Origin: a virus
Lineage: Duplodnaviria; Caudoviricetes
Reading direction: 5' to 3' (one strand)
IMG/VR virus record: IMGVR_UViG_3300008267_000012
Length of the DNA stretch: 64,000 nt
The position numbers were made by a program, and so were the translations under genes. Within the stretch, counting starts at the first letter, position 1; every line of letters starts with the position of its first letter. Below, piece after piece: positions 25,014-50,974 of the stretch. Below the pieces are notes generated by a model that was not told the origin of the DNA, ran no database searches, and was given only the letters and a program-made list of their open reading frames with translations.

Positions 25014-25183
25014 ACAATGTCAATGTATATACAATGTAGTGGTTCTGACAATGTTAATGTATATACAATGTATGACTTTCTGTATTGTGTGTTATTTTAC
25101 ATTGTTTGCCTTTTGACAATGTAGGAACAATGTCAGGACAATGTAGGCTTATACACAATGTTATGAGAATGTTTTGACATTGT
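25014..25183 (+). repeat. ACAATGT heptamer array
   Basis: Forward copies at 25014, 25031, 25048, 25065, 25116, 25127, 25138, 25155; reverse copies at 25099, 25177. Confidence 0.9.
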
Positions 25184-25193
25184 TGAAAAAGAA

Positions 25194-25293
25194 TGTAAGA
25201 TATTGACATTGAGTTCATATATTATAATGTAAACAAGATTGTTACAGAAGCCCGAACCAAGGGAAGGTTAATCGCAGGTAGTTCGCCCAAACT
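25194..25293 (+). ncRNA. Rightward 36-bp element plus 47-nt repeat copy 2 (putative sRNA)
   Basis: Element 25194-25229; repeat 25247-25293. Confidence 0.55.
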
Positions 25294-25325
25294 GAACTAT
25301 AAAATATATGAATAAAAAAAGTCAA

Positions 25326-25682
25326 TCAGAAATGATTGACTTTAAGTGTCACACTCTTTGGTTTCCAATTCAAACCCCAAAAAAAGCCACCGAAACACCC
25401 TGTTTGATTGTATTTATATATATCATACATAAGTATGTCTACAATTCCTTTTGCATACTCTATACCTACATATTCCCCAATTACTTGTCTGATTTGGAAA
25501 AAAGTAGTTTCCTCTTCTAAGTATTCTTGAAAAATATAGGGCAAATACTTCTTCAGTTGTTCTAAATCAGTAGACATTCCTTCTTCAGTAAGCCAATTGT
25601 CTATATACTCCCATAACCCTGATATGGATTGGAAAGCAACGCTTGAAGTACAAGTTGTGTTTACATTAGGATAATTTTCCAT
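25326..25682 (-). CDS. Hypothetical protein
   Basis: Intact ORF behind the 36-bp element at 25707. Confidence 0.75.
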   Translation of the reverse strand: MENYPNVNTTCTSSVAFQSISGLWEYIDNWLTEEGMSTDLEQLKKYLPYIFQEYLEEETTFFQIRQVIGEYVGIEYAKGIVDILMYDIYKYNQTGCFGGFFWGLNWKPKSVTLKVNHF

Positions 25683-25762
25683 TTTATTTTTTTTTAGTGT
25701 TTGTTGTAATATAGTATATGAACTGACCTTACAAATCTTACATAAATTTTTATTTTATTTTT

Positions 25763-25864
25763 TGTAAGATATTTGATATGAGTTCATATATTATATGGCA
25801 AACCACCTGGGTTTGCGGAAGCCCGAACCAAGGGAAGGTTAATCGCCTGTAACTTGTCCAAACT
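25763..25864 (+). ncRNA. Rightward 36-bp element, short hairpin and 47-nt repeat copy 3 (putative sRNA)
   Basis: Element 25763-25798; hairpin GCAAACC/GGTTTGC; repeat 25818-25864. Confidence 0.55.
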
Positions 25865-25918
25865 GAAATGATAAAAAAAATTAAATAAAAAAAGGGAAGA
25901 TTTCTCTTCCCTTAGTTA

Positions 25919-26296
25919 TCAGATGAAATCTGATTTCTCTTGATACTTCTTGAAGGCAAAATCAGCACTTGGTGTATCGCCATTGAGAACGATAAGACCT
26001 GTTACCTTGGTTCTGCCTTGACCAAACTTGGCTTCCCAAATGAAAGCAGTTGCTTCCAAGATTTGGGTGTTGGTTGAATCAGTACCCATCCAAACACGGC
26101 ATTCATAAATGCCATCTTTTTCAGGTGCATCTCCAAACCACTTGAACTTATCCCAACCTCCAAATGAAGAGGCTTTGGATTCAAGTTCTCCGTGCAAGTA
26201 CACCCAAGGTGTGTACGATAAAACCTCTTCTTTGAAAGGCAGAAGAGCATTTCCTGATTCCATCAATGTTGGAACGATAGTGTGTAAGTGTGTCAT
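25919..26296 (-). CDS. Hypothetical protein
   Basis: ATG abuts a 36-bp element; ends in a hairpin terminator. Confidence 0.75.
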   Translation of the reverse strand: MTHLHTIVPTLMESGNALLPFKEEVLSYTPWVYLHGELESKASSFGGWDKFKWFGDAPEKDGIYECRVWMGTDSTNTQILEATAFIWEAKFGQGRTKVTGLIVLNGDTPSADFAFKKYQEKSDFI

Positions 26297-26355
26297 AATA
26301 TAGTATATGAATTGAGATACGAAATCTTACATTTTATTTTAAAAAAAAACAATCT

Positions 26356-26410
26356 ACAATGTCTTGCACAATGTCTTGTACAATGTCAATAAAAAAGGGG
26401 AACACAATGT
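26356..26410 (+). repeat. ACAATGT array (12-bp period), with one further copy in a terminator loop
   Basis: Copies at 26356, 26368, 26380; 26404 lies within GGGGAAC-ACAAT-GTTTCCCC. Confidence 0.85.
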
Positions 26411-26427
26411 TTCCCCTTTGAAGATTG

Positions 26428-26847
26428 TTACTTTGCTCTGCAAACTGGTCCAAAGCCAATGCTGATTGAATCAGCATCAGTCAGAGGTCTTCCGCACCTT
26501 AGACATTTGCCTAAGTGCATTACCTCCACTTGGTCAGCAACTGCTTGATGATTACCAAGTTGAATATTGTGGAGAATCCACGCAATCCCTTTGGCTGAAG
26601 GTGTATCAACCTCTTGACCTTTACGGACAACCTTGCCATCTTTAAAGAAGCCAAGATACAACCATTCAAGATAGTTGGTTTCCACTTTGATGTGGGTGTA
26701 CCATTTATCATTGAACTGCTTGCGACTTACCTTGTAGGTGAAGTCTTTACCACTTCTCTTTGAGAGTGCGGTGAACTCACCACCATTGGATTGAGTATCA
26801 CCTTGAATAAGAGAAAGAAGTGCGGAGGTAGGAACTAAATTTTTCAT
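26428..26847 (-). CDS. DUF6011-like Zn-ribbon protein
   Basis: C-terminal GKCLRCGRPLTDADSISIGFGPVC. Confidence 0.75.
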   Translation of the reverse strand: MKNLVPTSALLSLIQGDTQSNGGEFTALSKRSGKDFTYKVSRKQFNDKWYTHIKVETNYLEWLYLGFFKDGKVVRKGQEVDTPSAKGIAWILHNIQLGNHQAVADQVEVMHLGKCLRCGRPLTDADSISIGFGPVCRAK

Positions 26848-26978
26848 AGTGTTATTGTTTATTGTAATATACTATATGAACTCAGTTGCGAAATCTTACA
26901 TTTTATTTTAAAATAAAAAAACCCTACCGATATAACCGATAGGGTTTCCAAGAAAAACCAATAAACACCCAAATACAA

Positions 26979-27143
26979 TCAATCCCAATTTTTTCGCTTC
27001 TGTGCGTTTCTATTATACTTTTTGGAATCCTTACCTACCTTAGTGGTAAATCTTGAATCACCATTGGTATCACGCAGATACATATCTCTTTTTATCTTCC
27101 CATAGTTAATGGGAGAAGTTGTTGTTGTTGCTGAAGTTTTCAT
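26979..27143 (-). CDS. Small basic protein (54 aa)
   Basis: Manual ORF MKTSATTTTSPINYGKIKRD... abutting a 36-bp element. Confidence 0.65.
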   Translation of the reverse strand: MKTSATTTTSPINYGKIKRDMYLRDTNGDSRFTTKVGKDSKKYNRNAQKRKNWD

Positions 27144-27166
27144 ACTTATATATATGAACTCAAGTG

Positions 27167-27517
27167 CTAAAACTTACAAATAAATTTAATTCTTTTCTCT
27201 TGTGCCTTTTCGTATTGAATATCACTAAGCCAAGAAGTAGCCAAAGCAGATACACCGATACCTAACGGAATAAAAATCATTGGATTACCATTATCTTCTT
27301 TTTTATAGATGTGGTAAGAAGCGACTGCTGAAACAAAAGCAGCGACTTGTAAAACCTTAGAAGTACCTTCCAATATCTTTGCCTTCTGCAAATGGAGATT
27401 AATTTCCTTACGGACTGAATCCCTCTTTTGGCGGTACATAATGGTTTTGTAGTTAGTTTGCCCCATAACCGATGAGGCAAACAAACAAAGTACCGAAACA
27501 ATGATTATCTTCTGCAT
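27167..27517 (-). CDS. Secreted/membrane protein
   Basis: Signal peptide plus two hydrophobic helices; final codons (CKF*) overlap the next 36-bp element. Confidence 0.7.
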   Translation of the reverse strand: MQKIIIVSVLCLFASSVMGQTNYKTIMYRQKRDSVRKEINLHLQKAKILEGTSKVLQVAAFVSAVASYHIYKKEDNGNPMIFIPLGIGVSALATSWLSDIQYEKAQEKRIKFICKF

Positions 27518-27717
27518 TCCCTTACGATTTTAAATTTATTCGTACCATTGATAGGGAATACCACTTCACCAACCTTGAACTCTCTATCCACCTTAATCTT
27601 GTGTGTGGTGATAGTATCGCCATCTACACGATGAGCAATAACCATTTTGGTTGTGCTTTCTATGCAAGAGGTCATCATCCCGATAACAACTGCCAATGTC
27701 AATAATCTTGTTTTCAT
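27505..27717 (-). CDS. Putative lipoprotein (70 aa)
   Basis: MKTRLLTLAVVIGMMTSC lipobox-like; ATG abuts a 36-bp element. Confidence 0.7.
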   Translation of the reverse strand: MKTRLLTLAVVIGMMTSCIESTTKMVIAHRVDGDTITTHKIKVDREFKVGEVVFPINGTNKFKIVRECRR

Positions 27718-27759
27718 AATATAGTATATGAATTGAAGTGTCAAATCTTACAATTTATT

Positions 27760-28014
27760 TTATTTCTTTTCTACAAGAACCCAATTATGTTGGGCAGTAT
27801 GAATCACAATGGCTTGATGCTTCTTTCCATCAAAGCCAACATATTCCAATGTTTTTTGTGATGCTTCATGAGGTTCAAGAGGTTTATCTTTTGAATTTGA
27901 ATGCTCAACAAAAGCACATATTACCGCAGTAAACATAATTGCAAACAATGCAACTATTGCTACTTTATAATAATTATCTTTCATAACCCAATTGTTAAAA
28001 TTAATAACCGACAA
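27760..28014 (-). CDS. Small membrane-anchored protein
   Basis: One TM helix; true start may be the internal MKDNYY. Confidence 0.65.
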   Translation of the reverse strand: MSVINFNNWVMKDNYYKVAIVALFAIMFTAVICAFVEHSNSKDKPLEPHEASQKTLEYVGFDGKKHQAIVIHTAQHNWVLVEKK

Positions 28015-28107
28015 ATGATAATGAAAAGTGAAAAGGAAATACCCAATACCACGATAACATCAAAGACCATATTTAGCCTTCTCTGTTGCTTATAAAAATC
28101 TTCCATA

Positions 28108-28347
28108 TTATTTCATTGTACTAAAACCATTTGAACAAACTATTCTATCTGAGGCATACAATTTTTCTTGAAAACCAGCCTTGCGGATTTCTTCAACTTC
28201 TTTGGTAGACATACCACCTTCTGAAATAGGCGCATCCAATAAGACCTTTGCAAATCCAACGAACAAGCCAAAACTTTTTCTATAAGCATCTGCAAGAATT
28301 TCCTTTTGCAAATTTTTCGGGAGAGATAATAACATTTCTTTAATCAT
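28108..28347 (-). CDS. Hypothetical protein
   Basis: Start moved downstream of the element at 28366. Confidence 0.65.
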   Translation of the reverse strand: MIKEMLLSLPKNLQKEILADAYRKSFGLFVGFAKVLLDAPISEGGMSTKEVEEIRKAGFQEKLYASDRIVCSNGFSTMK

Positions 28348-28465
28348 TTTTTTATTGTTTTGATGTAATATAGTATATGAACTCAATGCTGAAATCTTAC
28401 AATTTATTTTAAAATAAAAAAACCCTCTGCCATTTCTGACAAGAGGGTTCTATGAACAACAAACA

Positions 28466-28768
28466 CTAAACTTTCAATAACCTTTGAATCAAATCAGTTA
28501 TTTCATTTCTGTTTTGATAATACAGAATATCATCATTTTCACTAAGTTGAATCCATTCGTGTCCTTCTTTGTACCAAGCAGCAACCTCAAAGGTATGGAT
28601 ACCATCACCACCTAATCTTGGTTGATGTTCGGTTGGAAAGCCACCGATAACGGAAATGATTACCCCATTGGGTAATTCGTGCATTGAAGCAACCAAACCC
28701 TGACCTCCTGGATGAACCCCAAATACGAGGTCATCAAATGAACTTATTTCTTTCTTACAGATTTCCAT
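28466..28768 (-). CDS. Hypothetical protein
   Basis: Behind the element at 28786. Confidence 0.75.
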   Translation of the reverse strand: MEICKKEISSFDDLVFGVHPGGQGLVASMHELPNGVIISVIGGFPTEHQPRLGGDGIHTFEVAAWYKEGHEWIQLSENDDILYYQNRNEITDLIQRLLKV

Positions 28769-28866
28769 TTCTTAAATGTTTATTGTAATATAGTATATGA
28801 ATTGAAGTGTCAAATCTTACAATTTATTTTAAAATAAAAAAAGGGAGTATTTCTACTCCCTTAATT

Positions 28867-29175
28867 TTACTTTACAAGAAAGTCAAAACCACCAACCTTT
28901 CCCACATTCCGACCATTGATACCAAGTATTCGGCAAATCAATGCACCTAACTTTTTGGTTCTCATATTGGCGATGAGAGAACCTTGCCACTTCCCTTCAG
29001 TTTCAACTGAGGGTGAAAAGTTAAGTGACCCGACTTCACGAATAAGCCATTGGTCATCTAACCTATGCTTTTCTCTAAACTTAGAGATTTCCCCTAAGAT
29101 GAAAAGATGTGTACCTTTGGGAGTTTCAACGATTAAATCCCATTTGCCTTTTGACTCAAAGATGTATGCAACCAT
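28867..29175 (-). CDS. Hypothetical protein
   Basis: Behind the element at 29193. Confidence 0.75.
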   Translation of the reverse strand: MVAYIFESKGKWDLIVETPKGTHLFILGEISKFREKHRLDDQWLIREVGSLNFSPSVETEGKWQGSLIANMRTKKLGALICRILGINGRNVGKVGGFDFLVK

Positions 29176-29248
29176 TTCTTAAATGTTTATTGTAATATAG
29201 TATATGAACTCACCTTACAAATCTTACATAAAATTTTATTTTATTTTT

Positions 29249-29341
29249 TGTAAGATATAAGACTTGAATTCATATATTAAGGTGTAGCAATACAGAAGCC
29301 CGATTCAAGGGAAGGTTTATCGCCTGTAACTTGCCCATACT
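29249..29341 (+). ncRNA. Rightward 36-bp element plus 47-nt repeat copy 4 (putative sRNA)
   Basis: Element 29249-29284; variant repeat 29295-29341, followed by a TTGCCCATA/TATGGGCAA hairpin. Confidence 0.55.
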
Positions 29342-29370
29342 TTTTTTAGATATGGGCAAAAAAAAGAGGG

Positions 29371-29643
29371 TTAATACCCTCTCTCTTTCTTGTACTTCTC
29401 TTGCACCTTTTCAAGTTGCGCCAACGCATCCTTGTTGCTCCTTGCAGTCAGACCATAGTAGTCTTTAATCTGCTTGGCAGTTATGCCCTTGAATAGCATT
29501 CCCTTTGAAAGGATTTTCATTTGGAAGATGTGGGTGTTCAACTGATAGCCAAAGTAATCAATTTCCTTATCACCCATACTTACTTTCGGTGTTTGCAGTT
29601 CTCCCGACCTTGCAGAAGCAACTGCTTGTTCAAATTGTGTCAT
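29371..29643 (-). CDS. Hypothetical protein
   Basis: ATG abuts a 36-bp element. Confidence 0.75.
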   Translation of the reverse strand: MTQFEQAVASARSGELQTPKVSMGDKEIDYFGYQLNTHIFQMKILSKGMLFKGITAKQIKDYYGLTARSNKDALAQLEKVQEKYKKERGY

Positions 29644-29719
29644 AATATAGTATATGAATTCACTTGCCAAATCTTACATTTTATTTAAAAAAAAAGGGAG
29701 TATTTCTACTCCCTCTCTT

Positions 29720-30604
29720 TTAGACAAGTGCAACTCCCTTTCTTTCAGCGACTTCCGTAAGGAATGAAAGAGCATCGGTGTTGAACTTCATATTACCACC
29801 CAACAGATTGCCGTAGGTATCGGTAGAAGATTTGGTGTGTGTGGTGTAGTGTGTTACACCATTGAAAGCACCCCAAAGATTCATACCCAAATCCGCAGTT
29901 TCTCTGTTCAGAGAATCCATCAAAGCCACCTTAGTATTACCCTTTCTTACAGAAAGAATATCACCTTCAGCAATCTTTGTTTCATCAATGTTCAGAAGCC
30001 TATTGGCAAGGGCATCAAGAATAGACCTATCAATCTTGATTTCAGACATTTTCTGAAAGATGATTGCCTCTTGTTCCTTTTCAGCACGGAAGCCACGAAC
30101 AAGGTCAATAAACATATCCACCTTGTAGTTGTGGTTCTTCGTGTGCCGAACCTTCAACCCTTGCATCACCCGACCCCATTGGTTGAAACAACGAAGCAAG
30201 ATGTTTACACTACCAACGAAAAGTGGTGTAGTGCCATCGTGTGAATTACCAAATACAAGGTAGTTCTCACTTTTCAGACCAAGATACTGATGCACAAGGT
30301 CATCGGTTGCTTTCAGATAGGCAAGTACCTTAGTACCGCCACGAAATTCAGCGAACCCTTCAAGTTCGTAACCCGAAGCATCAGCAAGTTGCCTTGCGTG
30401 TTCTTCAAAGGTTCGGTTCTTTGTTTCCGTATATGAATCACGGAACAAACTCAATGTTTCCAAAGTATCACTCCTTTTCAGAGCAACATATCTTTCTTCG
30501 GGAACGAACAGACCACTTTTTGTTTGTGTGTAAGGTGTGTGTCTTTCCACCTCCCAACCAAGGCTTTCCTTGAAATCCTTGACTGCATTTGATTTGCTTG
30601 TCAT
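29720..30604 (-). CDS. DUF932 / TIGR03299-like phage-plasmid protein
   Basis: LGWEV...YLVFGNSHDGT...VRHTK...NLWGAFNGVTHY. Confidence 0.8.
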   Translation of the reverse strand: MTSKSNAVKDFKESLGWEVERHTPYTQTKSGLFVPEERYVALKRSDTLETLSLFRDSYTETKNRTFEEHARQLADASGYELEGFAEFRGGTKVLAYLKATDDLVHQYLGLKSENYLVFGNSHDGTTPLFVGSVNILLRCFNQWGRVMQGLKVRHTKNHNYKVDMFIDLVRGFRAEKEQEAIIFQKMSEIKIDRSILDALANRLLNIDETKIAEGDILSVRKGNTKVALMDSLNRETADLGMNLWGAFNGVTHYTTHTKSSTDTYGNLLGGNMKFNTDALSFLTEVAERKGVALV

Positions 30605-30690
30605 AATATAGTATATGAATTGAGATACGAAATCTTACAATTTATTTTAAAAAAAAGGGAGAAATTTCTTCTCCCTTGATTTTCAGTTAC

Positions 30691-31188
30691 TTACTCACCA
30701 ATCTTAATGATATTGCTTTCTTTGGGGCAAATCACCATAGACTGCTTAGTTAGTTTCTCTGCATCAGAGGCGGTCAGATACTTTTTGAATGTATCTTCCT
30801 GCACCTGAATACCATCTACCATAAAGGTATAGGTAATTTCGCAGTTATCCGTAGGGTATAGTCTGATATACCTTTGTTCCTCCGTTTCGTTTTTTGGAGT
30901 ATGCAAAATGGTATATGGGAAATGCTCCCAACGACCCCAAGGGAGTGAACCAACCTCACCTCTTGTTCCATCGGCAATGCCTTCAAGAACAGGTTTGAGG
31001 TTTGCGTAATTGATACCTGCCCTAAACACACCTTTGGTATGCTTGGTCAGTTTTTTTCCTTTGAAAGCCTTAGATGGCTTAACATCGGAAATGAACTCTG
31101 CTGAAAGGAATTGACCTTTGCAGGTAAAGAAACGGCTTGCCACTCCCGACAGACCGCTTGGCACTTGTAATTGAGAGGTATTACTCAT
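30691..31188 (-). CDS. Conserved phage hypothetical protein
   Basis: RAGINYANLK...LPWGRW...YIRLYP; ATG abuts a 36-bp element. Confidence 0.75.
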   Translation of the reverse strand: MSNTSQLQVPSGLSGVASRFFTCKGQFLSAEFISDVKPSKAFKGKKLTKHTKGVFRAGINYANLKPVLEGIADGTRGEVGSLPWGRWEHFPYTILHTPKNETEEQRYIRLYPTDNCEITYTFMVDGIQVQEDTFKKYLTASDAEKLTKQSMVICPKESNIIKIGE

Positions 31189-31270
31189 AATATAGTATAT
31201 GATTTCACTTGCGAAATCTTACAAAAATAAATAAAAAAAGGGAGAAATTTCTTCCTCCCTTGATTTTCAG

Positions 31271-31660
31271 TTAGTTACTCTCAGAATGTTCTTGAACAAT
31301 CTCCATTCGGGTTTCGTGTTCCTCTTTAAGGTCTGTAATAGCATCCTTAATGAGGTCTAAAACATTCCTTTTCTGCTCATAAGCATTAACCTCAAAATCA
31401 TCAAGTTTAATGGTATTACCATAACTAATTTCAAATGATTCATTTGAGATTTCAAAGTTGCTTGCATCATCAAAGTCATAGCAATCAAGAACATCAATAA
31501 TCTTATCCCTAACTAAGTTAAGAATAGCAATGAAATCTTGCTTTGACTCTTCCACCTTCGGTTCTTCTGAAACCATATTTAAGGTGTTTACAACATCATC
31601 TTTGGTGAAGAGGCTTCCAAGCGAATCTTGCACCTTTGCGATTACTTCTTGTTTTTTCAT
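31271..31660 (-). CDS. Hypothetical protein
   Basis: Start MKKQEVIAK after the element at 31678. Confidence 0.75.
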   Translation of the reverse strand: MKKQEVIAKVQDSLGSLFTKDDVVNTLNMVSEEPKVEESKQDFIAILNLVRDKIIDVLDCYDFDDASNFEISNESFEISYGNTIKLDDFEVNAYEQKRNVLDLIKDAITDLKEEHETRMEIVQEHSESN

Positions 31661-31759
31661 TTTATTTATTTTGTTTGTGATATAGTATATGAACTCGTTG
31701 TTCAAATCTTACATTTTATTTTAAAAAAAAAGGGGAAATTTCTTTCCCCTTAATTTAAA

Positions 31760-32663: not shown

Positions 32664-32716
32664 ATTTTATTTTTAGTATGTATAAAAAAAAGGTGGAACA
32701 ATGTCCACCTTAAAGA

Positions 32717-35677: not shown

Positions 35678-35971
35678 CTAATGAATAATCAGTTCCTCAT
35701 GAAATTTCTCAGGTACTTTATGAATAGGATTATCATAAGCATCATTAAAGGTATTAGATAATATACCATCCTTAATGTATGCCCAATGTCTATCCGTTTC
35801 CATATTATTGGTGTACTCATATCGGACAAGGCATATATCCATTCTTTCATTATTTTCAACCCAATAATGAAGATGACCTAAATCAGCCAACCTTTCAGCA
35901 AAATGGGAATCAATAATGTCATTGTGAGCATCCACAATTTCGTAGCACCATTCGTAAGTAATCTCTTTCAT
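35678..35971 (-). CDS. Hypothetical protein
   Basis: Behind the element at 35988. Confidence 0.7.
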   Translation of the reverse strand: MKEITYEWCYEIVDAHNDIIDSHFAERLADLGHLHYWVENNERMDICLVRYEYTNNMETDRHWAYIKDGILSNTFNDAYDNPIHKVPEKFHEELIIH

Positions 35972-36074
35972 AATGTTTATGCGTTTGTGATATAGTATAT
36001 GAACTCACCTTACAAATCTTACAAAAAAAAATAAAAAGTTTTTTCTAAGAACTACTTATAGAAAACATATATCT

Positions 36075-36500
36075 ATGGAATCTCAATCCCTTAAAGACAA
36101 ACTCTTTGAAGAAATTAAACAACAAAAAGAATCTAAAATTAATTTTATTTCATTGGTTTCTAAATTACTTGATTCTCAAAGACAAATACATATCTTCCAT
36201 CTTCAAACTAAATCATTTGCTGAACATAAAGCATTACAAGATTATTATGATGCCATTGGTGATTTAGTTGATGGTATTGTTGAATCTTATCAAGGTAAAT
36301 ATGGTATCATCTCAGGTTGGAAATCTTTTTCTACTGAAGAATATCAATCAACTGAACAAGTCATTGTTTATTTAAAATCATTAACAAATGACATTGCTTC
36401 TGTCTTTAGTATTATTAAAGATACTTATATCCAAAATCAATTAGATGAAGTAACTGCATTAATCAATTCCACATTATACAAATTAAGATTTTTAAAATAA
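36075..36500 (+). CDS. Ferritin/Dps-like four-helix protein of T4-like phages
   Basis: HIFHLQTKSFAEHKALQDYYD...DGIVESYQGKYG...IQNQLDEV...YKLRFL. Confidence 0.7.
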   Translation: MESQSLKDKLFEEIKQQKESKINFISLVSKLLDSQRQIHIFHLQTKSFAEHKALQDYYDAIGDLVDGIVESYQGKYGIISGWKSFSTEEYQSTEQVIVYLKSLTNDIASVFSIIKDTYIQNQLDEVTALINSTLYKLRFLK

Positions 36501-36618: not shown

Positions 36619-36772
36619 ACAATGTCTATAAAAACATTGTTTGTAGTTCAACAATGTTTAGAACAATGTCATCTTTAACAATGTTTGTTCATACAATGTA
36701 TATGATAACAATGTTTGTTAAAACAATGTTTGCATTTATTAACATTTATTTCATACAATATTAGAACAATGT
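36619..36772 (+). repeat. ACAATGT heptamer array (mostly 15-bp period)
   Basis: Copies at 36619, 36651, 36663, 36678, 36693, 36708, 36723, 36766; reverse copy at 36634. Confidence 0.9.
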
Positions 36773-36982
36773 ACTATTTTTATACTATTTATATATGAAT
36801 GGCATTATAAGAATTATTGTTATTGTAAATGTTTGATTATTAAGTAGTTAGATATTAAAAAAGTAACTTAGTTTAGTATAATTTCATCTTAGAAATGTTA
36901 TAAAAAAATGTTACTTGTGTGGCATTATTGAAAATGTGCGGTCAACACTTTGCTCAATGATTTCTACATAAAACGCATTATA

Positions 36983-37028
36983 TCAATGAGTTATAACATT
37001 CTCAATGGTATCATTTGTAACTCATTGA
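36983..37028. repeat. Perfect 11-bp inverted repeat TCAATGAGTTA/TAACTCATTGA
   Basis: Arms at 36983-36993 and 37018-37028; same motif family as 23864. Confidence 0.8.
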
Positions 37029-37160
37029 CACACAATCATAGCAACTTATTGTAAATAAACACTTTATAAAAGAACTTATAAAAGTAGATATAATACTATA
37101 AATCAAGTATTATATCCCCATTATTTACCACAATGCTCCACAACGCACCACAGAGAAGAA

Positions 37161-38030
37161 TTAGGTAAATAATTCATCTAAATCTACTTCATCATTTATA
37201 TTATGGAATCTATTTTTATTATTAAAGTAAGTATTTATGGATTGCATATCAGAACCTGAAAGGTCAAACCATTCACCTCTTATTCTTTTATGTTTAAACA
37301 TAGAATGAAGATTTCTTTCATCAATTATTTTGGCATCAAAAGTTTGTAATAGTTCAATAGTAGGTTTTTCTGATTGTAGAGTTTTTTCTCTTTTAATAGC
37401 ACTAAGCGACCTACCTATTTTATAATAACCTGTATTTTTATCAATCATTACATAAACTTGTGTAAAGGTATTAGCAATTACTTTAGGTTCTTGTTTTTTT
37501 TCTATTTCTATTAGGTGAGATATTTTTATTTTATCGCTATCGGTATAATTTTTACCTACTTTAATATAATTAGAATTTAGCAATTCACCTCTAACGGCTA
37601 ATACTAAAGTATTATCAATGTTTATAATTTTTTTTGGATTAAAAGATATATCAAGTGGTTTAAAATAATAGATTTCATTTTCATCATAGTCATCACCATA
37701 ATTAGAATAAGTATTATAGAAAGCATTTTTAATATCAACTATTTGATATATTTTATCTTTTTTGGGAAAATGTTTTTTTATATTTCTACTATTTTCTTGA
37801 CACCACTTAGTAAACTCTTCTTTTTTATCTTTTAATATTTTATTTAATTCTTGAACTTGTGAATTAAATTTTTCTATTTCATCAATATAATTTATGGTAT
37901 TAAGATTAGTATTATTTTTATTAATACATTTTTTACAAGCAGATGCTAAACCATCATTTCTACTTTTATCATTAGTAAAATCAGTTCTTAGTTTTTCAAC
38001 TTTGCATCTTGGACATACTTTTGTTTTCAT
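37161..38030 (-). CDS. GIY-YIG superfamily (T5orf172-like) protein with N-terminal Zn finger
   Basis: CPRC...CKKC; VYVMID...YYKIGRS...RE..LQ...LHSMFKHKRIRGEWFDL. Confidence 0.8.
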   Translation of the reverse strand: MKTKVCPRCKVEKLRTDFTNDKSRNDGLASACKKCINKNNTNLNTINYIDEIEKFNSQVQELNKILKDKKEEFTKWCQENSRNIKKHFPKKDKIYQIVDIKNAFYNTYSNYGDDYDENEIYYFKPLDISFNPKKIINIDNTLVLAVRGELLNSNYIKVGKNYTDSDKIKISHLIEIEKKQEPKVIANTFTQVYVMIDKNTGYYKIGRSLSAIKREKTLQSEKPTIELLQTFDAKIIDERNLHSMFKHKRIRGEWFDLSGSDMQSINTYFNNKNRFHNINDEVDLDELFT

Positions 38031-43747: not shown

Positions 43748-43984
43748 TTAATTTTCTAAATCAACAAATATATTTAAATCATTTCCAATTCTACTTTTAA
43801 GAATTTCTAATTCTTCTGTATATTCAGTATCATACAAATCATCTAAAACTCTTTGAGTAGTTACCATTGTTCTATGAGAATCACCCCAAGTAACTCTACC
43901 TGACATTGCTAATTCACCAAACAAATCATCAATACCTTGAAATAGGTCAGATGCTAATATAAATTCACAAGTAAACTTTTCCAT
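43748..43984 (-). CDS. Hypothetical protein
   Basis: Operon ORF. Confidence 0.65.
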   Translation of the reverse strand: MEKFTCEFILASDLFQGIDDLFGELAMSGRVTWGDSHRTMVTTQRVLDDLYDTEYTEELEILKSRIGNDLNIFVDLEN

Positions 43985-43985
43985 T

Positions 43986-44378
43986 TTATTTAATTTTAGA
44001 GATTAATAATTCACTTACAATAATATCTTGAATTTCAAATTCAGTTTGGTCATCAGTATCAATGCAGTTCTTTACATAACCTTCTTGTACTAATTTATCT
44101 ACAATACGAATTGCAATATCTTTGCAATCATCAAGAAACATTTGTGCTTCTTCTTCAGTAGCGAAATACTTCCTATTGGGTTTATGTAATTTAACTGATT
44201 CATCATCCCAACAAGACCATACAACTTCATCATTATCAATGGTGTAGTAATCATCACCTTCATTAATCCACATACCTTTTCTTCCATAGAAAGATGGTAT
44301 AAAGCCTTGCATTTCTTTTTCTTCTTTACTCATAGCATAAAGATTTCTTTCTTCTTGATTATCTAAATTGTAAATCAT
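43986..44378 (-). CDS. Hypothetical protein
   Basis: Operon ORF. Confidence 0.7.
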   Translation of the reverse strand: MIYNLDNQEERNLYAMSKEEKEMQGFIPSFYGRKGMWINEGDDYYTIDNDEVVWSCWDDESVKLHKPNRKYFATEEEAQMFLDDCKDIAIRIVDKLVQEGYVKNCIDTDDQTEFEIQDIIVSELLISKIK

Positions 44379-44394
44379 TTTATTTTATTTTAAT

Positions 44395-44610
44395 TTAAGA
44401 ACCACTACTCATTATCAATGTATTCATCCTTTGGGAAGTCTTCTCCAAATAAATTTGGTGCGCTTCTTCTGTATGGTCTTTACAACCACAAACCCATCTA
44501 CTATTAATTGCATCAGCAAATGGTGGTGTATAGACATTATACTTCTCAATTTCTTCTGACTTGCAAACCACACAAGTTTGAACATCTCCGTAATAATTTG
44601 TTACTCTCAT
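44395..44610 (-). CDS. Small Zn-binding-like protein
   Basis: CVVC...CGCKDH; behind the element at 44629. Confidence 0.65.
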   Translation of the reverse strand: MRVTNYYGDVQTCVVCKSEEIEKYNVYTPPFADAINSRWVCGCKDHTEEAHQIYLEKTSQRMNTLIMSSGS

Positions 44611-44700
44611 TGTTTTTAAGTTTTGTTACAATATACTATATGATTTCACCTTTGAAATCTTACAAAAAAAGGGAAACATTTCTGAATCCCTTTTTTTATT

Positions 44701-45234
44701 TTAGTAATCCAACATTTTTTCTAATTCAATTCTCCTTGTATGGTCTTTAACATCCCTATCAATGATATGTACTTTAATTACATCAGCACCAACTTCAAAG
44801 ACTTGTGCAACTGATTCCAAAGGATATACAAACTTTTTTGATTCACAATGCCCTTTCCAATTTTTGTGAACAATTATTTTACCACTAAAATCATAGGTAA
44901 GTTTTTCTCCTTCTCTTGGACAAAAGAAAATAATTTTAATGTATCCTCTTCCGTGTCCAAATTCAAAGGTCATTGACAAACCATTTGATTCTCTGCTAAG
45001 ATACCAATCTCCAATGTGAAGATTAATTGATTTGAATGTTGGTAATTCAAGTTCATCAATTATTACATCATTGATTTTGTAAATGTAATCCTTAATCAAT
45101 TCCACAAACTTTTGTGCAACTTGATTATTATGTTCTTGAATTTCTTTAGCAGTTTGATTTGCCTTGTTTGTTAAGTCTTTCAAATCAAAGACTGATAAAT
45201 CAATATTTCCGTTAATTGCTTTTAATGTAAACAT
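44701..45234 (-). CDS. Hypothetical protein
   Basis: Behind the element at 45255. Confidence 0.7.
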   Translation of the reverse strand: MFTLKAINGNIDLSVFDLKDLTNKANQTAKEIQEHNNQVAQKFVELIKDYIYKINDVIIDELELPTFKSINLHIGDWYLSRESNGLSMTFEFGHGRGYIKIIFFCPREGEKLTYDFSGKIIVHKNWKGHCESKKFVYPLESVAQVFEVGADVIKVHIIDRDVKDHTRRIELEKMLDY

Positions 45235-45357
45235 TTTGTTTTTAAGTTTTGTTACAATATACTATATGATTTCACCTTTGAAATCTTACAAAAAAAGATA
45301 AAAAAAATCCCCCCAAAATTTGAGAGGACTTTTAAAATAAAAGTTCACAACTAAACA

Positions 45358-45552
45358 CTATTCTTCGGGTTCATCAATCATTTTGATTGAGTAACCATAT
45401 TCTTCCATATAATCTTTTTCAATATCATTGATTAGACTTTCAATGAACTGATAAGGAGAACTATAATTAAAACGATAATTAGGATATTTTTCCTTTAGTT
45501 TATCAATATCTACTAATACTTCAATATTGAAATTGAATTTAAGATTTGCCAT
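45358..45552 (-). CDS. Hypothetical protein
   Basis: Operon ORF. Confidence 0.65.
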   Translation of the reverse strand: MANLKFNFNIEVLVDIDKLKEKYPNYRFNYSSPYQFIESLINDIEKDYMEEYGYSIKMIDEPEE

Positions 45553-45556
45553 ACTT

Positions 45557-46312
45557 TTAATCTTGTTTTTCTTTTTGTTTTATTTTATTTATTTCAGAAG
45601 CAAATTCATAATCTTCGTTTTCTACTGCCAATCTAAGAAATTCATTTAGAACAACAAGTGGCATTTCTTCATCAACCACTTTATCTCTTTCATAAGCAAT
45701 TTCAATTAATGTTTTATGGAAATTAGATAGTTCTTCATCTTCATTAACTTCAAAGAACATATCATAAGTATAATAATCATTATCACCTTGTATTTCCAAA
45801 GCAAGTACATATGCTTCTTTTGAACCACCATCGGGAAAATCACAATCAACTACTTCACCTTTAAGTAATTTATATTTACCTACATTATATCCAAAATCTT
45901 CATCTGCAAACATTATTTCAAATGTTGCATCACCAAACATTTCAGATAACTTTTCAAAGATTGAAAAAGGTGATGCCCAAGCGGTATTGAACTCAATCAT
46001 ATCATCTGAAATGAATATATCAGAACAATTCCATTTAGTACCCCAATTACGAGTTGACCAATCATACCAATTATCAGAACCAAACTTTTCAATTAGTTCT
46101 TTTGACATTGATTCAGTAATACCTTTATCAGAATTAATTTTATATTCTGTATCAGATATAATCCTTGTAGGTGCAGTTGTACCTATTAGTTCTTCGGGCA
46201 TAGGAATAATTTTATTAAAATCAAATTCAGTATTATCTGATTTGACCAATGAAACAATTTTCTTGATTGTTTCCGCATCCGTGTAAAGTTTGTTTGTAAT
46301 CCAATTAGGCAT
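45557..46312 (-). CDS. DUF1281/YubB-like ferredoxin-fold protein with UVR-like C-terminus
   Basis: MPNW..N...FDFNKIIPMP...WYDW..RNWGTKWN...FNTAWASP...FADED; tail AVENEDYEFASEI. Confidence 0.75.
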   Translation of the reverse strand: MPNWITNKLYTDAETIKKIVSLVKSDNTEFDFNKIIPMPEELIGTTAPTRIISDTEYKINSDKGITESMSKELIEKFGSDNWYDWSTRNWGTKWNCSDIFISDDMIEFNTAWASPFSIFEKLSEMFGDATFEIMFADEDFGYNVGKYKLLKGEVVDCDFPDGGSKEAYVLALEIQGDNDYYTYDMFFEVNEDEELSNFHKTLIEIAYERDKVVDEEMPLVVLNEFLRLAVENEDYEFASEINKIKQKEKQD

Positions 46313-46448
46313 AATTTTTTTGTTTTAATTTTGTTACACTATAATATATGAACTCAAGGTTCAAATCTTACAAAAAAAGATAAAAAAAATCCCCCCAAAT
46401 TTTGGGAGGACTTTCCAAAAAAATAAAAATATGACTAACAACGAACTT

Positions 46449-46697
46449 TTAATATAGTGTTGGAAAAGCAATATCTTCTCCACTTGTAGTTCTTCCAAAT
46501 AGTGTTCCACCATCATTACCTTCATCATCCATAGATGGAAATATGAATGAACCATCATTAAAGAATATAGCAAGAGGTCTTGAAGACCAACCCATATTAT
46601 CTGCTTCAACTTTGGACATATATCTTACTGCTTTAATTGTTTTACCAATAAGATTTGCTTTGGCAAAATCATTCCAATGTTTTTCTGTACTACCCAT
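46449..46697 (-). CDS. Conserved phage hypothetical protein
   Basis: LIGKTIKAVRYMS...PSMDDEGNDGG. Confidence 0.75.
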   Translation of the reverse strand: MGSTEKHWNDFAKANLIGKTIKAVRYMSKVEADNMGWSSRPLAIFFNDGSFIFPSMDDEGNDGGTLFGRTTSGEDIAFPTLY

Positions 46698-46908
46698 AAA
46701 TCAAATTTAAATTAAAATCAAGATACATTATCTTTTCTGAATTTGTTTCCCAAGAACTACCTTTATCACATTCATCTAAGAAATCTTTTAATATGATTTC
46801 ATTATCATCAGTATCATTTAAATCCCAATACTTTCTGATATGAGATTCAGTAGTAGTGAAAGGTTCTGCCCTTCCTGACTTGTCTTTAATTAAGAAAATC
46901 TTTTCCAT
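46690..46908 (-). CDS. Hypothetical protein
   Basis: Operon ORF. Confidence 0.65.
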   Translation of the reverse strand: MEKIFLIKDKSGRAEPFTTTESHIRKYWDLNDTDDNEIILKDFLDECDKGSSWETNSEKIMYLDFNLNLIYG

Positions 46909-46920
46909 TTTATTTTAATT

Positions 46921-47235
46921 TTAATCTTCTACAACTACAAATTTACTTTCCCAACCTTTTTCAGTAATGATATAACCAAAACGATTGACAACACAATGAC
47001 CTGCAACAATTACAAAATCATCATCATTTTCTATGATTGTCCAAATATGATTATTTCTATTTGCATAGATTTGTCTAAGAACATAATCATATTCTTCACC
47101 ATAGGTTTCAAACATACAACCTGACCAAGAGGTTATATCTTCATCCTTAATATCTGAATTTGTTTTTGCCCTCACAATATGATTGATTTGAGGTTTGTAT
47201 TCAGAATAGAAATCTTCTAAACTCATTGTTTCCAT
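46921..47235 (-). CDS. Conserved phage hypothetical protein
   Basis: MFETYGEE...IWT...VNRFGYIITE; start after the element at 47251. Confidence 0.75.
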   Translation of the reverse strand: METMSLEDFYSEYKPQINHIVRAKTNSDIKDEDITSWSGCMFETYGEEYDYVLRQIYANRNNHIWTIIENDDDFVIVAGHCVVNRFGYIITEKGWESKFVVVED

Positions 47236-47293
47236 TTTATTTTTTGTTTGTGATATACTATATGAACTCACCCAACAAATCTTACAAAAAATT

Positions 47294-47620
47294 TTAAAAA
47301 CTTTTTAATCCTTTGGAAATCAGAAAGTTCTGAATGTTTTTGTTTGGTGAATCTATTGGAACAAGACCACCTTCTGAATAAATATCTTCAAATTCTTGAA
47401 CAAGGGATTCAATTAATTTAATTACTCCATCATCACCAAGTTCAGATTTTGCTTTAAGTACAATTTCTGCATCTTGATTTTGAGAAACTATTTTAGTAAT
47501 AAAATAATTTGTTTTGTTCCAAGAATTAATGACATTCTTTGTTAAATCTAAAACTTTTTTTGTATCTTTTGATGGACATACTTTTTCCATTAATGATAAT
47601 AAATCAAATACTCTTTTCAT
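47294..47620 (-). CDS. Hypothetical protein
   Basis: Partial element (AAATCTTACA) upstream near 47668. Confidence 0.65.
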   Translation of the reverse strand: MKRVFDLLSLMEKVCPSKDTKKVLDLTKNVINSWNKTNYFITKIVSQNQDAEIVLKAKSELGDDGVIKLIESLVQEFEDIYSEGGLVPIDSPNKNIQNFLISKGLKSF

Positions 47621-47783
47621 AAATATTTTTAATAATGTTACCCTATAAGATAGGAATTAGAGGTTCAAATCTTACAATCTTTTTTGCACTCTTTTGAGCA
47701 ATTTTTTGAATAGGTTGCACAACTTTTTGGAGCAGCGCACGAATAAAATAAAACAGAAATTGTGATTATAGTGATTATCTTTT

Positions 47784-48461
47784 TCATTTTATATTAAATA
47801 GTGCATCACTCCATTGTTGTGCAATAGCATCAGCAATACCTTGAAAGGTTTTACTTCTCAATGTTCTTCTTTCTGCATCAGTCTTTGCTTGTGCAATAGC
47901 ATCAGCATACCATTTAGGCATTTTCTTTCCACTACTGAAAGTAACAAACTCACCTTTTCCTACTACATTAGTAGGAGTAAGTTGTGGAAGATTCTTTAAC
48001 CAAAGACAAGTTGATTTACTTGCTTCATCACCAAACATAAAAGGTTGAACTATTTGGTCAGGTTTTCTCCATTTTGTAGATAAAAGACCAATAGGGTTTT
48101 CTATCGCAACCATTGGTATCTTACAATTATACAATGCTTTTACAAACTCAACACTATCCAACATATCTTTTCTTCTATTAGGATATTTTGGGTGTGGTCT
48201 TCTATCTTCAAAAGGTAAATCTTTATCTTCAGGATGCGACAACCATTGAACACCACTACTTGTAAGATAAGTACAAGGAGGGTGAGCAATCATCATATCC
48301 CAATTTTCCCTTTCAATAACATTGAATACATCATCTTGGTAATGCCATTCGGGATGACCACCACTACAAGGAAGTAAGTCGCAAGAATAGGCTTCGTAAC
48401 CTAACTTTCTGAAAGCCAATGTAATGGCTTGGGATTCTTCACACGCAACGAGAATTTTCAT
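47784..48461 (-). CDS. DNA cytosine-5 methyltransferase-like protein
   Basis: MKILVACEES, catalytic-like HPPCT, ENPIG, QPFMFG, SKSTCLWL, RSKTFQGIA; partial 36-bp element upstream. Confidence 0.7.
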   Translation of the reverse strand: MKILVACEESQAITLAFRKLGYEAYSCDLLPCSGGHPEWHYQDDVFNVIERENWDMMIAHPPCTYLTSSGVQWLSHPEDKDLPFEDRRPHPKYPNRRKDMLDSVEFVKALYNCKIPMVAIENPIGLLSTKWRKPDQIVQPFMFGDEASKSTCLWLKNLPQLTPTNVVGKGEFVTFSSGKKMPKWYADAIAQAKTDAERRTLRSKTFQGIADAIAQQWSDALFNIK

Positions 48462-48547
48462 AACTTTTTTCTGCAATATATGAATAAGGTTTGAAAATCT
48501 TACATTTTTATGCAAAAAAAATGGGGGAAATTCCCCCATAATTTATT

Positions 48548-48754
48548 TTAAATTGAAACTTCGTATTCGTTTGTTTTGTCAGCAATATACAATCTTAATT
48601 CATCTAAAGATATAGATTCTTCATCAGTATATTTATCTTTGGAACGAATCATTTGTGTTATATCATATAGAATTGCTCTGTATCTCCAACCATTGATAGC
48701 ATTGTTGTATTGTTCTTGTTCTTCAATTCCATCAAATTCAAGAATTACTTTCAT
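48548..48754 (-). CDS. Hypothetical protein
   Basis: Intact ORF. Confidence 0.7.
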   Translation of the reverse strand: MKVILEFDGIEEQEQYNNAINGWRYRAILYDITQMIRSKDKYTDEESISLDELRLYIADKTNEYEVSI

Positions 48755-48756
48755 AA

Positions 48757-49443
48757 TTACTCTTTGTTTGCAGGTTGCTGATTAATATTAGGTTGCTGTT
48801 CTTGATTTGATGGTTTTTGTCGTTTTGGCATTTTTGCCACTTGTTCAAGCACATAATTTCTAAATTCTTTTATTGTACCTGTGTAATTTACACCTTTATT
48901 AAATTTAGTTGCATTTGATAACATTCTAATATTTTGAGGTGAGTAAATAAACATTGCACTATCAATAGTGGTAAAACCTTTTTTATCAGTATATTCAAAT
49001 GTGTGTATAAGTGCGTATGCTTCTTCGTTAGGATTCAATTTTTTAGTATTTTCTTTTAATGTTTTTAATAAAGTTTTTACTTTCAAATCAGGGTTTTGAT
49101 ACATTTTGATTGTTTTATAATCAATAGTATTAGGAGAAAGTCTTTTCCTAAATTGCATTTCTTGATTAATCATTTCTCTTTGATTTATCATTGAGAAAGG
49201 TGATAATTCATTTTCTTTTAATATATTTAAACCCATAGAATCTCCTTTAATAAAGTGGTCAATTTTTATTGTATCAACAAAAGTGGTTGTTATTCCTTTG
49301 TACTGATTGAATTTGTTTGCTAAAGAATCTTTAACATATTTTTCAACTGACTTTTTAATTTGGTCATCTCCATTATTGTTTACTTTTGCTGATGAGACGC
49401 AAATGATACTTAACATTGTAAGTGATAATAATAATTTTTTCAT
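48757..49443 (-). CDS. Secreted protein
   Basis: MKKLLLSLTMLSIICVSSA signal peptide; Gln-rich tail. Confidence 0.7.
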   Translation of the reverse strand: MKKLLLSLTMLSIICVSSAKVNNNGDDQIKKSVEKYVKDSLANKFNQYKGITTTFVDTIKIDHFIKGDSMGLNILKENELSPFSMINQREMINQEMQFRKRLSPNTIDYKTIKMYQNPDLKVKTLLKTLKENTKKLNPNEEAYALIHTFEYTDKKGFTTIDSAMFIYSPQNIRMLSNATKFNKGVNYTGTIKEFRNYVLEQVAKMPKRQKPSNQEQQPNINQQPANKE

Positions 49444-49479
49444 AGTTTTGATAATTTTAATATAAATAGTAAATTTTTA

Positions 49480-49794
49480 TTAGTTTCTTCTCAAGAAATT
49501 AAGACATTCTGTTAAATATTTTACAGATAGTTTATCATAATTAATTGAGAAAGTGTCATAAGGTTGTGCTTTTTTATATGTAACCGCAGTTATGTGATTC
49601 ATATGAAATCCTTGTATGAATCCTTTCTTAATACCATCATCATAAAAAACACCATCAACTGCTTTTGTATTACCTAAATGTAAAAAACTTGGTTTTGGAG
49701 GCATACAATTACCAACAATGTCCTCATAACAATGTATAGAACCATAGTTTTGAATGATTTCTTGAATCTGCTCAATTACTTCTTGTCTTTCCAT
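49480..49794 (-). CDS. Hypothetical protein
   Basis: Preceded by a TAATTTTG box. Confidence 0.65.
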   Translation of the reverse strand: MERQEVIEQIQEIIQNYGSIHCYEDIVGNCMPPKPSFLHLGNTKAVDGVFYDDGIKKGFIQGFHMNHITAVTYKKAQPYDTFSINYDKLSVKYLTECLNFLRRN

Positions 49795-49815
49795 TTTGCA
49801 AAATTAAGAAAAAAA

Positions 49816-49943
49816 ACAATGTTGGAAAAATTTTTTAACAATGTTCCCTTTTAAACAATGTTCGCTTAAAACAATGTTGGCTTAAAACAATGTTCCCTTT
49901 CAAACAATGTTAGGTTAAACAATGTTCTTTTTAGGAACAATGT
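49816..49943 (+). repeat. ACAATGT heptamer array (8 copies, 15-22-bp spacing)
   Basis: Copies at 49816, 49838, 49855, 49871, 49887, 49904, 49919, 49937; two more near 50511-50531. Confidence 0.92.
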
Positions 49944-50427
49944 ATTTTGAAATTTCAATTAATTTTTCAGTTTCTACAAGAGTAAGTACATCAATCATAT
50001 TTGTATATTTGTTTGGTCTTTTATACAAATGATACAATGTTGGTCTATCCTTATATTCTTTTATTGTATTTTTAGCAATAAAGTCTTGCAATACAAGTCT
50101 ATCAACTACAACCCATTTATCATTCATTTCAAATGCAAAACAATCTGCGCTACCATATAACCAACCTAAATGACGTTTTTCTAAAGTTTTACCTCTTTTA
50201 ATTTCAATCCATTGAATAGATTCATCAAATGGTTCATTTCTTTTTAATTTCTTTAATCCCTTAACATCTATTTTTAATTGTTCATTTTTAATTACAACAA
50301 AGACATCCCAATGTTCATAAATATCTTCTTTCTTTGTTGCTTCTCTGATAAATTCATCACAATCTTCTGCGAATCTTACCTCAACTTTTTTTGCAGTTTC
50401 TAATAAACCTGACCAATCATACCCCAT
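49915..50427 (-). CDS. PD-(D/E)xK nuclease-fold protein
   Basis: EHWDVFV...KIDVKG...WIEIK...GWLYGSADCFAFE. Confidence 0.6.
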   Translation of the reverse strand: MGYDWSGLLETAKKVEVRFAEDCDEFIREATKKEDIYEHWDVFVVIKNEQLKIDVKGLKKLKRNEPFDESIQWIEIKRGKTLEKRHLGWLYGSADCFAFEMNDKWVVVDRLVLQDFIAKNTIKEYKDRPTLYHLYKRPNKYTNMIDVLTLVETEKLIEISKYIVPKKNIV

Positions 50428-50530
50428 AATAATTTTTCTTTCTCTAAATATACATTCTTTTTGGGAGAAAAAGAAAAATCCCCATCAAAAGACAGGGATT
50501 TTTTTATTTAACAATGTTTGTTAAACAATG

Positions 50531-50974
50531 TTATTTATAACCTAAACCAAATGCAACACATTTGTTATTAGGATTTTTAATATCTTTCTTATCAAAAATG
50601 TATTCAATAGTATAGTCACCTGAGTATTTTGCGGTAAAGTCAAACACTTTACCATCACCCATATAGACATTTGATACAAACAATTTATCTTTAGAATCAT
50701 AAAGATTAATTATTACTCTACCCTCAAACCCTTCAGACACATCAACTAATCTATATTCCTCATTTTTAAATACACTAAAAGTTGCTTTAACAGCATCTTT
50801 TCTTTCAAATTCATTGTATGATTTGTATGCAAGAGATTCGTATATATATTCATCCAAAGAAAGGTTTACACTTTTTCTTATTGTTTTAGAATTGCATTGT
50901 GCAAAACTAGTTTGTGTCATTAGTATCAACATACTAACGATTACTGCGATGATTAAACCGACTCTTCTTTTCAT
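50531..50974 (-). CDS. Secreted protein
   Basis: Signal peptide ending SFAQC; beta-rich body. Confidence 0.65.
   Translation of the reverse strand: MKRRVGLIIAVIVSMLILMTQTSFAQCNSKTIRKSVNLSLDEYIYESLAYKSYNEFERKDAVKATFSVFKNEEYRLVDVSEGFEGRVIINLYDSKDKLFVSNVYMGDGKVFDFTAKYSGDYTIEYIFDKKDIKNPNNKCVAFGLGYK

Follow-up and report, generated by a model that had tools for sequence, protein, structure and literature searches.

Five clusters of the heptamer ACAATGT, in the following called arrays 1 to 5, are found in a stretch of 64,000 nucleotides from a virus of the Caudoviricetes (IMG/VR record IMGVR_UViG_3300008267_000012), which was analysed at its full length and is referred to as the window. Comparison with related contigs showed that the arrays have syntenic counterparts, that the underlying site is a palindrome whose core is under purifying selection, and that array 3 is linked to other conserved elements. 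It is very probable that the heptamer is a protein-binding site, which, if all models that involve binding are taken together, is the only reading that sits comfortably with the comparative data. In detail, we propose that the sites belong to one dimeric DNA-binding protein, with an origin-like home locus at array 3 and satellite arrays at promoters, and we give this reading a probability of about 40%.

Arrays of the heptamer in the window

On both strands of the 64-kb window ACAATGT is matched 51 times. Shuffles that preserve the dinucleotide composition contained 16.8 ± 4.1 matches with a maximum of 28, and none of 100 shuffles reached 51. The five clusters, which hold 33 of the copies, had been listed in an earlier interpretation made from the letters of the DNA alone (the sequence-only reading) and were all confirmed in position and copy number:

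Array 1, 25014-25183: 10 copies of ACAWTGT (8 ACAATGT and 2 ACATTGT) in 17-bp and 11-bp sub-units, between two divergent promoters of the private type described below
Array 2, 26356-26410: 4 copies, all forward, with a 12-bp period, upstream of the private promoter at 26331
Array 3, 36619-36772: 9 copies (8 forward and 1 reverse), mostly with a 15-bp period
Array 4, 49816-49943: 8 copies, all forward, with a 16-bp unit
Array 5, 50511-50531: 2 forward copies in the stretch from the stop of gene 50531-51034 to its terminator

Within arrays 1 to 5 the copies are spaced at 11-34, 12-24, 12-43, 15-22 and 14 bp, respectively. The clusters are non-coding with the exception of two copies of array 4, which are overlapped by the tail of the open reading frame (ORF) 49915-50427. 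Tandem Repeats Finder gave a different repeat unit for each array (17 + 11, 12, 15 and 16 bp for arrays 1 to 4, respectively), and the heptamer is the sole sequence that the units of the different arrays have in common.

The window has a G+C content of 27% and contains PolB, tRNAs and many small ORFs. The genes from 23 to 54.6 kb are all on the minus strand (for the plus-strand DUF5856 gene see below), and a composition boundary lies at 21-24 kb.

Conservation of the arrays among relatives

A search of IMG/VR with PolB gave five contigs with 80-84% amino-acid identity. Two of the five reach the array region, namely G001 (170 kb, colinear but reversed) and G003 (74 kb), and a third array-bearing relative, the contig L033, was obtained from a scan of IMG/VR for the heptamer. 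Synteny was established by blastn plus motif maps, and the four genomes compared in the following are the window, G001, G003 and L033.

Only array 3 is common to the four genomes. Its orthologue in G001 (22529-23045) has 14 copies counted in the region, seven forward and seven reverse; the one in L033 (5986-6348) also has 14 counted in the region, eight forward and six reverse; and the one in G003 (64661-65213) has been expanded through a 61-bp super-unit to 26 copies, five forward and 21 reverse. The array persists down to an identity of 73% of the neighbouring protein. Arrays 1 and 4 are kept in G001 (35904-36076 with 9 copies and 11736-11867 with 8 copies, respectively), where array 2 is reduced to a remnant of one exact copy and two degenerate ones. 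In G003 the places of arrays 1, 2 and 4 hold no heptamer, and terminators abut promoters there; at the site of array 4 the terminator abuts an identical -7 box and leaderless ATG. The copies of array 5 were found in neither G001 nor G003. The arrays therefore do not form one graded series; one is universal among the relatives and the others are lineage-specific. In addition, the window carries an insertion next to array 4 that is not present in G001 and G003:

49915-50427, minus strand: ORF of 170 amino acids, between the upstream terminator and array 4

In the 170 kb of G001, 51 of the 66 heptamers lie within the early region at 5-45 kb and 15 in the remaining 125 kb. G002 contains 11 copies of the heptamer and 50 of the reversed word. 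An avoidance of the heptamer outside the arrays was considered and dropped, since a maximal-order Markov model accounts for the counts (15 observed versus 16.9 expected).

Single copies of ACAWTGT are enriched in coding sequence at 49400-54600 of the window (11 in 5.2 kb), where the leftward gene block has its upstream end, and none is found between 37 and 49.4 kb. A resembling cluster of single copies lies at 7.0-13.5 kb of G001. Per site, the single copies at 49.4-54.6 kb are conserved no better than expected under neutrality. Isolated heptamers, finally, form the hairpin loops of intrinsic terminators in compact cassettes (26404-26410, 32698-32704 and the terminator of the DUF5856 gene in G001), one of which is kept in G003:

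32698-32704: isolated copy in the loop of a terminator hairpin (flanks GGTGGA / TCCACC)

A palindromic site with a conserved core

Among 104 sites from the four genomes, A is found at position -1 in 63 and T at position +1 in 60. The consensus is a-ACAWTGT-t, a dyad-symmetric palindrome of 7-9 bp with a free central base. In one pair of orthologous copies, from the window and G001, this central base is the only difference, and when array 3 is aligned in the same direction it reads mostly ACAATGT in the window, mostly ACATTGT in G003 and is mixed in G001 and L033. Since the orientation is set only by the central A or T of a palindrome and is not conserved, the one-way look of the arrays in the window, which the sequence-only reading had stressed, is not a functional polarity. 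It comes from local tandem copying of a unit.

These findings also bear on the suggestion that the arrays control a staged injection of the DNA, like the injection stop signal of T5. The arrays are indeed confined to the early-gene region, and the composition boundary at 21-24 kb would suit such a role. However, they lie at three separate loci over 25 kb, of which two are dispensable in the close relative G003, their orientation is not conserved, and there is no sign of fixed genome ends near them, the relatives in IMG/VR being classed as linear fragments without end repeats. We regard this part of the sequence-only reading as hardly credible.

When arrays 1 and 4 of the window and G001 are aligned, 108 of the 126 heptamer columns (86%) are identical, compared with 149 of the 249 spacer columns (60%; Fisher p = 1.7e-7), and the value for the cores is lowered by one misaligned and one deleted unit. 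As the cores are conserved while the spacers drift, the word appears to be selected as a binding site, and judging from this alignment the selection on the heptamer core is purifying. The idea that the arrays bind one protein thus gains from the comparison, with the same heptamer at syntenic positions and with cores that are kept while spacers, copy number and spacing change; it is the emphasis on orientation that has to be given up.

One may still ask whether the arrays are functionless products of replication slippage in intergenic DNA that tolerates such repeats. The repeat units differ from array to array and clearly record tandem duplications, arrays have been gained and lost between close relatives, and unrelated phages and bacteria carry tandem repeats that happen to include ACAWTGT. 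However, independent arrays with different units all share one 7-bp core, which is kept while the spacers diverge, isolated copies sit in terminator loops, and array 3 is found in four genomes. An origin from slippage without any function is therefore very unlikely.

The array 3 locus

The universal array lies in a gene-free gap of 660 bp, with the plus-strand DUF5856 gene on one side and the minus-strand gene 37161-38030 on the other. The features of this region are:

36075-36500, plus strand: DUF5856 / phrog_858 gene (Pfam 4e-22, PHROG 1e-25)
36773-36925: AT-rich tract with a GC content of ~17%, between array 3 and the conserved element
36930-37160: conserved non-coding element, palindrome-rich, with many invariant columns in the four-genome alignment
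37161-38030, minus strand: gene with a T5orf172/MUG113 domain (Pfam), an insertion specific to this genome beside the conserved element

The order is constant in all four genomes, namely the DUF5856 gene with its Dps-like product, the heptamer array, the AT-rich tract of ~150 bp and the conserved element of ~230 bp. The DUF5856 gene is the only gene that is always adjacent to array 3 (4/4 genomes), and it is convergent with its neighbours. Between the convergent genes no ORF is found downstream of the array. The non-coding stretch contains 9 to 26 copies of ACAWTGT in the four genomes.

Besides the box GAAAATGTGYGG, the conserved element includes an inverted pair of ATCAATGAGTTA with a distance of ~20 bp (36982-37029) and further palindromes. 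At its end three CCACA boxes, which we take to resemble the conserved half of the DnaA box, follow each other in an exact 10-bp phase (37128, 37138 and 37148). The pattern CCAC-N6-CCAC-N6-CCAC occurs once in the window and is kept in G001 and G003. An RNA gene was considered for the element and rejected, as it contains no ORF, has no match in Rfam, shows neither covariation nor compensatory changes and folds equally on both strands (z ~ -3.1 each); DNA palindromes fit these observations better.

The 12-mer ATCAATGAGTTA of the element is also found elsewhere. Two direct copies (with the variant TTCAGTGAGTTA) lie at 23865-23930, upstream of the sigma-like gene, and the 12-mer is kept in G001; in G003 it also makes up a palindrome that follows a tRNA gene. 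A second regulator may use it as its site.

Taken together, the AT-rich tract, the phased boxes, the convergent genes and the lack of an ORF that could be regulated would suit an origin-like role of the array 3 locus. Of the functions suggested by the sequence-only reading, replication iterons remain plausible for this one array.

Arrays at promoters

The window contains a promoter type of its own, the private promoter TGTAAGAT-N13-TCATATAyT, with ~34 copies on the minus strand between 24991 and 48504, directly before leaderless ATGs, and four further copies on the plus strand. An array is found upstream of only two of the ~34 minus-strand copies, those at 24991 and 26331. Array 1 is flanked by two private promoters:

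24962-24991, minus strand: private promoter of the leaderless gene 24723-24956 (77 amino acids), directly downstream of array 1
25194-25223, plus strand: plus copy of the private promoter on the far side of array 1, with a putative short non-coding transcript

Measured to the -35-like TGTAAGAT boxes, the nearest copy of array 1 is 22 nt away on the side of the minus promoter and 10 nt away on that of the plus promoter, and G001 has both distances unchanged. It also shares the -35-like box itself, and the downstream part of its promoter is different. Array 2 is placed between the terminator of gene 26428-26847, whose loop is formed by the last copy of the array, and the promoter at 26331. From the end of array 4 it is 9 nt downstream to a -7 box of host type (TAATTTTG, 49799-49806, minus strand) and 21 nt to the leaderless ATG at 49794 with which gene 49480-49794 starts and which the box precedes. 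Arrays 1, 2 and 4 thus adjoin promoters; no promoter could be assigned to the universal array 3. The cassette promoter of G003 is of the host type TTG...TAccTTTG, and no match to the sigma-like gene of the window was found in G003.

This arrangement suggests an alternative in which a dimeric transcription factor, encoded by phage or host, would use the heptamers as operators or enhancers to turn a few early transcription units on or off, with array 3 controlling a promoter inside the conserved locus. Indeed, arrays 1, 2 and 4 are placed exactly in the gaps from terminator to promoter, array 1 between divergent promoters, and the 22 nt and 10 nt to the -35-like boxes have been retained in both genomes. 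Short palindromes are typical of dimeric regulators, and the two copies of ATCAATGAGTTA upstream of the sigma-like gene hint at a tie between the conserved element and transcriptional control. However, arrays accompany only 2 of the ~34 private promoters on the minus strand, G003 retains the downstream genes and the -7 box without any heptamer, and 8-26 copies are far above what an operator usually needs. Moreover, downstream of array 3 there is neither an ORF nor an RNA gene with support, and no regulator gene was found in the window. We consider a mere regulator only somewhat less likely than the reading that we prefer.

A proposed mechanism

In the reading that we prefer, a-ACAWTGT-t would be the recognition site of one sequence-specific, probably dimeric protein. 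Its conserved home would be the gene-free locus at 36.5-37.2 kb with its 9-26 sites, AT-rich tract, palindrome-rich element and phased CCACA boxes, which may act as an origin-like cis-acting region composed of iterons, an unwinding region and auxiliary boxes. In the lineage of the window and G001, local tandem duplication would have added further arrays in terminator-promoter gaps, two of them before private promoters and one before a promoter of the host type. At these satellite arrays the same protein might modulate transcription or be titrated, like DnaA boxes at oriC, datA and promoters.

Several points weigh against this mechanism. The centre-to-centre distances of the sites are spread over 10-43 bp, with 15 and 17 bp as the commonest values, and, unlike those of classical iterons, are irregular and not helically phased. 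By its low stability the stretch 36713-36912 at the AT-rich tract ranks in the top ten of the 200-bp stretches in the 64 kb, but it is not unique in this. The sequence-only reading had suggested a comparison with inflections of the GC skew; the cumulative skew runs straight through 36.7 kb without any inflection and follows the direction of transcription here. Those T4-type origins that have been studied work via R-loops and not via initiator proteins (PMC3016281). Pfam scans of 100 window ORFs gave no recognisable DNA-binding domain, neither beside the arrays nor elsewhere, and no initiator domain of the Rep, O or DnaA type was found among the ORFs of the window. The one constant neighbour of array 3 does not fill this gap. 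The AlphaFold model of the DUF5856 protein is a four-helix bundle (pLDDT 86.6) whose best matches in the PDB are Dps proteins (TM 0.74), and proteins of this fold bind DNA without sequence specificity. Finally, three of the five arrays are situated at promoters, for which a plain transcription-factor model would be simpler.

Comparison with known systems

As for the genomic setting, the hyperplastic regions of T4-type phages contain promoter-early stem-loop cassettes, which consist of a terminator and a promoter. The compact terminator-promoter modules between the small early genes of the window resemble these cassettes; however, the arrays are an add-on at 2 of the ~34 modules and not part of the module itself. 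The distribution of the sites is reminiscent of the DnaA-box network, in which one short site is found in the main origin cluster, in the datA and DARS clusters and at promoters, with variable spacing and orientation. A main cluster, secondary clusters and promoter arrays of one site are present here, too. DnaA boxes, however, are asymmetric 9-mers read by a monomer, whereas the site described here is palindromic.

T4 has five origins, and at oriE an iteron cluster is found to which no role has been assigned (PMC3016281). The likeness consists in a T4-type phage with several candidate cis-acting loci and a cluster of short repeats in the early region which is syntenic in related phages (PMC3016281). 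Compared by description, the present arrays differ by a palindrome of 7 bp, an irregular spacing of 10-43 bp, mixed orientation and three to five loci instead of one.

Iteron origins such as lambda ori with the O protein, P1 oriR with RepA, RK2 oriV and SPP1 oriL and oriR with G38P (see also PMC4980987) share with array 3 an array of sites, putative initiator sites in the case of array 3, beside an AT-rich tract and auxiliary boxes, and more than one array per genome is possible in them. Here, however, no initiator gene is adjacent, the sites have 7-9 bp as opposed to 17-22 bp and are not helically phased, and the auxiliary boxes are ~350 bp away from the array. The iterons of lambda are individually palindromic.

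In unit length and mixed orientation the nearest formal analogue is the heptad system of omega, the ribbon-helix-helix (RHH) ParB protein of plasmid pSM19035. Its heptads are units of 7 bp in either orientation, of which several arrays per replicon are found upstream of promoters (PMC9499535), and these arrays are operator and centromere at once (PMC9499535). The omega heptads must be contiguous, with four or more needed (PMC9499535). In this the analogy fails: the heptamer cores of the window are 3-36 bp apart (the smallest distance between centres is 10 bp), their core sequence is another one, and no ParA partner is found among the window ORFs.

It could be argued from this analogy that the arrays are the platform on which a structural nucleoprotein complex is nucleated, i.e. 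a centromere-like site that positions the phage DNA, a site for condensation or packaging recognition, or a sponge that titrates a host protein. The family of repeats of Epstein-Barr virus (EBV) is arranged similarly to the arrays. High and variable copy numbers, mixed orientation and several arrays per replicon, as with omega/ParB of pSM19035 (PMC9499535), would suit such a platform, as would the enrichment of single heptamers at 49.4-54.6 kb with the similar cluster in G001. However, these single copies are conserved no better than neutral expectation, omega requires contiguous heptads (PMC9499535) where gaps of 3-36 bp are found here, and a virulent T4-type phage has no obvious need of partition. 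Furthermore, among 100 window ORFs there is no match to ParA, CbiA or AAA_31, and no gene for ParB, TubZ or a small terminase subunit is recognisable in the window. Partition or nucleoid anchoring, another function envisaged in the sequence-only reading, thus finds no partition ATPase and no ParB-like gene among the window ORFs, and we consider a structural platform in general to be unlikely.

Candidates for the binding protein and further searches

Apart from the DUF5856 protein, several genes were considered as source of the binder and rejected. The T5orf172 gene beside the conserved element is absent from G001 and G003. In G003, a stand-alone winged-helix protein of the OmpR/PhoB type (Trans_reg_C, 8e-18) is encoded on the minus strand at 68945-69352 (L162:13946-14353), 3.4 kb from the array with 26 copies, and has no homologue in the window, G001, G002 or G006. 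The product of the 77-amino-acid gene that follows array 1 groups with hypothetical proteins of viruses in one family, and the genes for 98 and 104 amino acids, which were also tried, are not paralogues.

The DUF5856 gene itself contains three heptamers within its 3' coding end in G001 (L159:2910-3332) and G003 (L162:9381-9803). They accompany differences from the protein of the window at three residues (V to C, L to F and S to T).

Scans for heptamer arrays in IMG/VR and in GTDB genomes (>115 loci each) gave, beyond G001 and L033, unrelated repeat units that contain ACAWTGT. The ~230 other viral and bacterial loci with ACAWTGT arrays share no protein family, so that guilt by association yields no binder. 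Three of the loci (L191, L196 and L201, from Chryseobacterium and Vicingaceae genome contigs, i.e. Bacteroidota) are contiguous intergenic microsatellites of 8 bp, (AACAATGT)n, with 6-10 units. A search with the invariant 17-mer of the conserved element gave as true homologues only the three known relatives, and a DUF5856 profile search just one extra, unrelated context. No relatives were obtained by locus searches with the ORF 49915-50427 and with the sigma-like gene, and a megablast search of INPHARED, a collection of phages, with 20 kb gave no match. The pattern of the private promoter has 0 matches in IMG/VR and is found in 10 small metagenome contigs, none of which bears an array. A literature search for the heptamer itself returned primers and unrelated operators only.

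As a further property of the genome, several short words are missing from the window or rare in it. GATC is absent from the 64 kb (0 versus ~170 expected from base composition), as are CGCG (0 versus ~28) and GGGAC and GTCCC together (0 versus ~20), and ACGT occurs 7 times versus ~170 expected. The pattern recurs in the relatives, with GATC at 2 versus 425 expected in G001 and 0 versus 183 in G003. The lack of GATC and similar words is a strong avoidance of restriction sites.

Implications

Extended beyond the four genomes, the proposed mechanism would mean that giant T4-like phages of the Bacteroidota possess an initiator-type, sequence-defined origin whose binder also docks at satellites of early promoters and so couples the start of replication to the control of early genes. 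This extension is tentative and rather improbable as it stands. If it were true, a network like that of the DnaA boxes or of EBNA1 would exist in a phage lineage that is thought to start replication from R-loops and recombination. Outside T4, the choice of replication starts and the timing of early genes in T4-type and giant phages are poorly understood.

As a DNA word, the heptamer is short, sharply delimited and validated by evolution, and both the word and the conserved compound locus are usable as bait for the binder. In addition, the heptamer and the array 3 locus are landmarks for the mapping of read depth and transcripts in freshwater metagenomes. If the site is only the operator of a regulator, the finding would be an ordinary one; if it marks an origin, it would provide a handle on replication in an uncultured group of giant phages.

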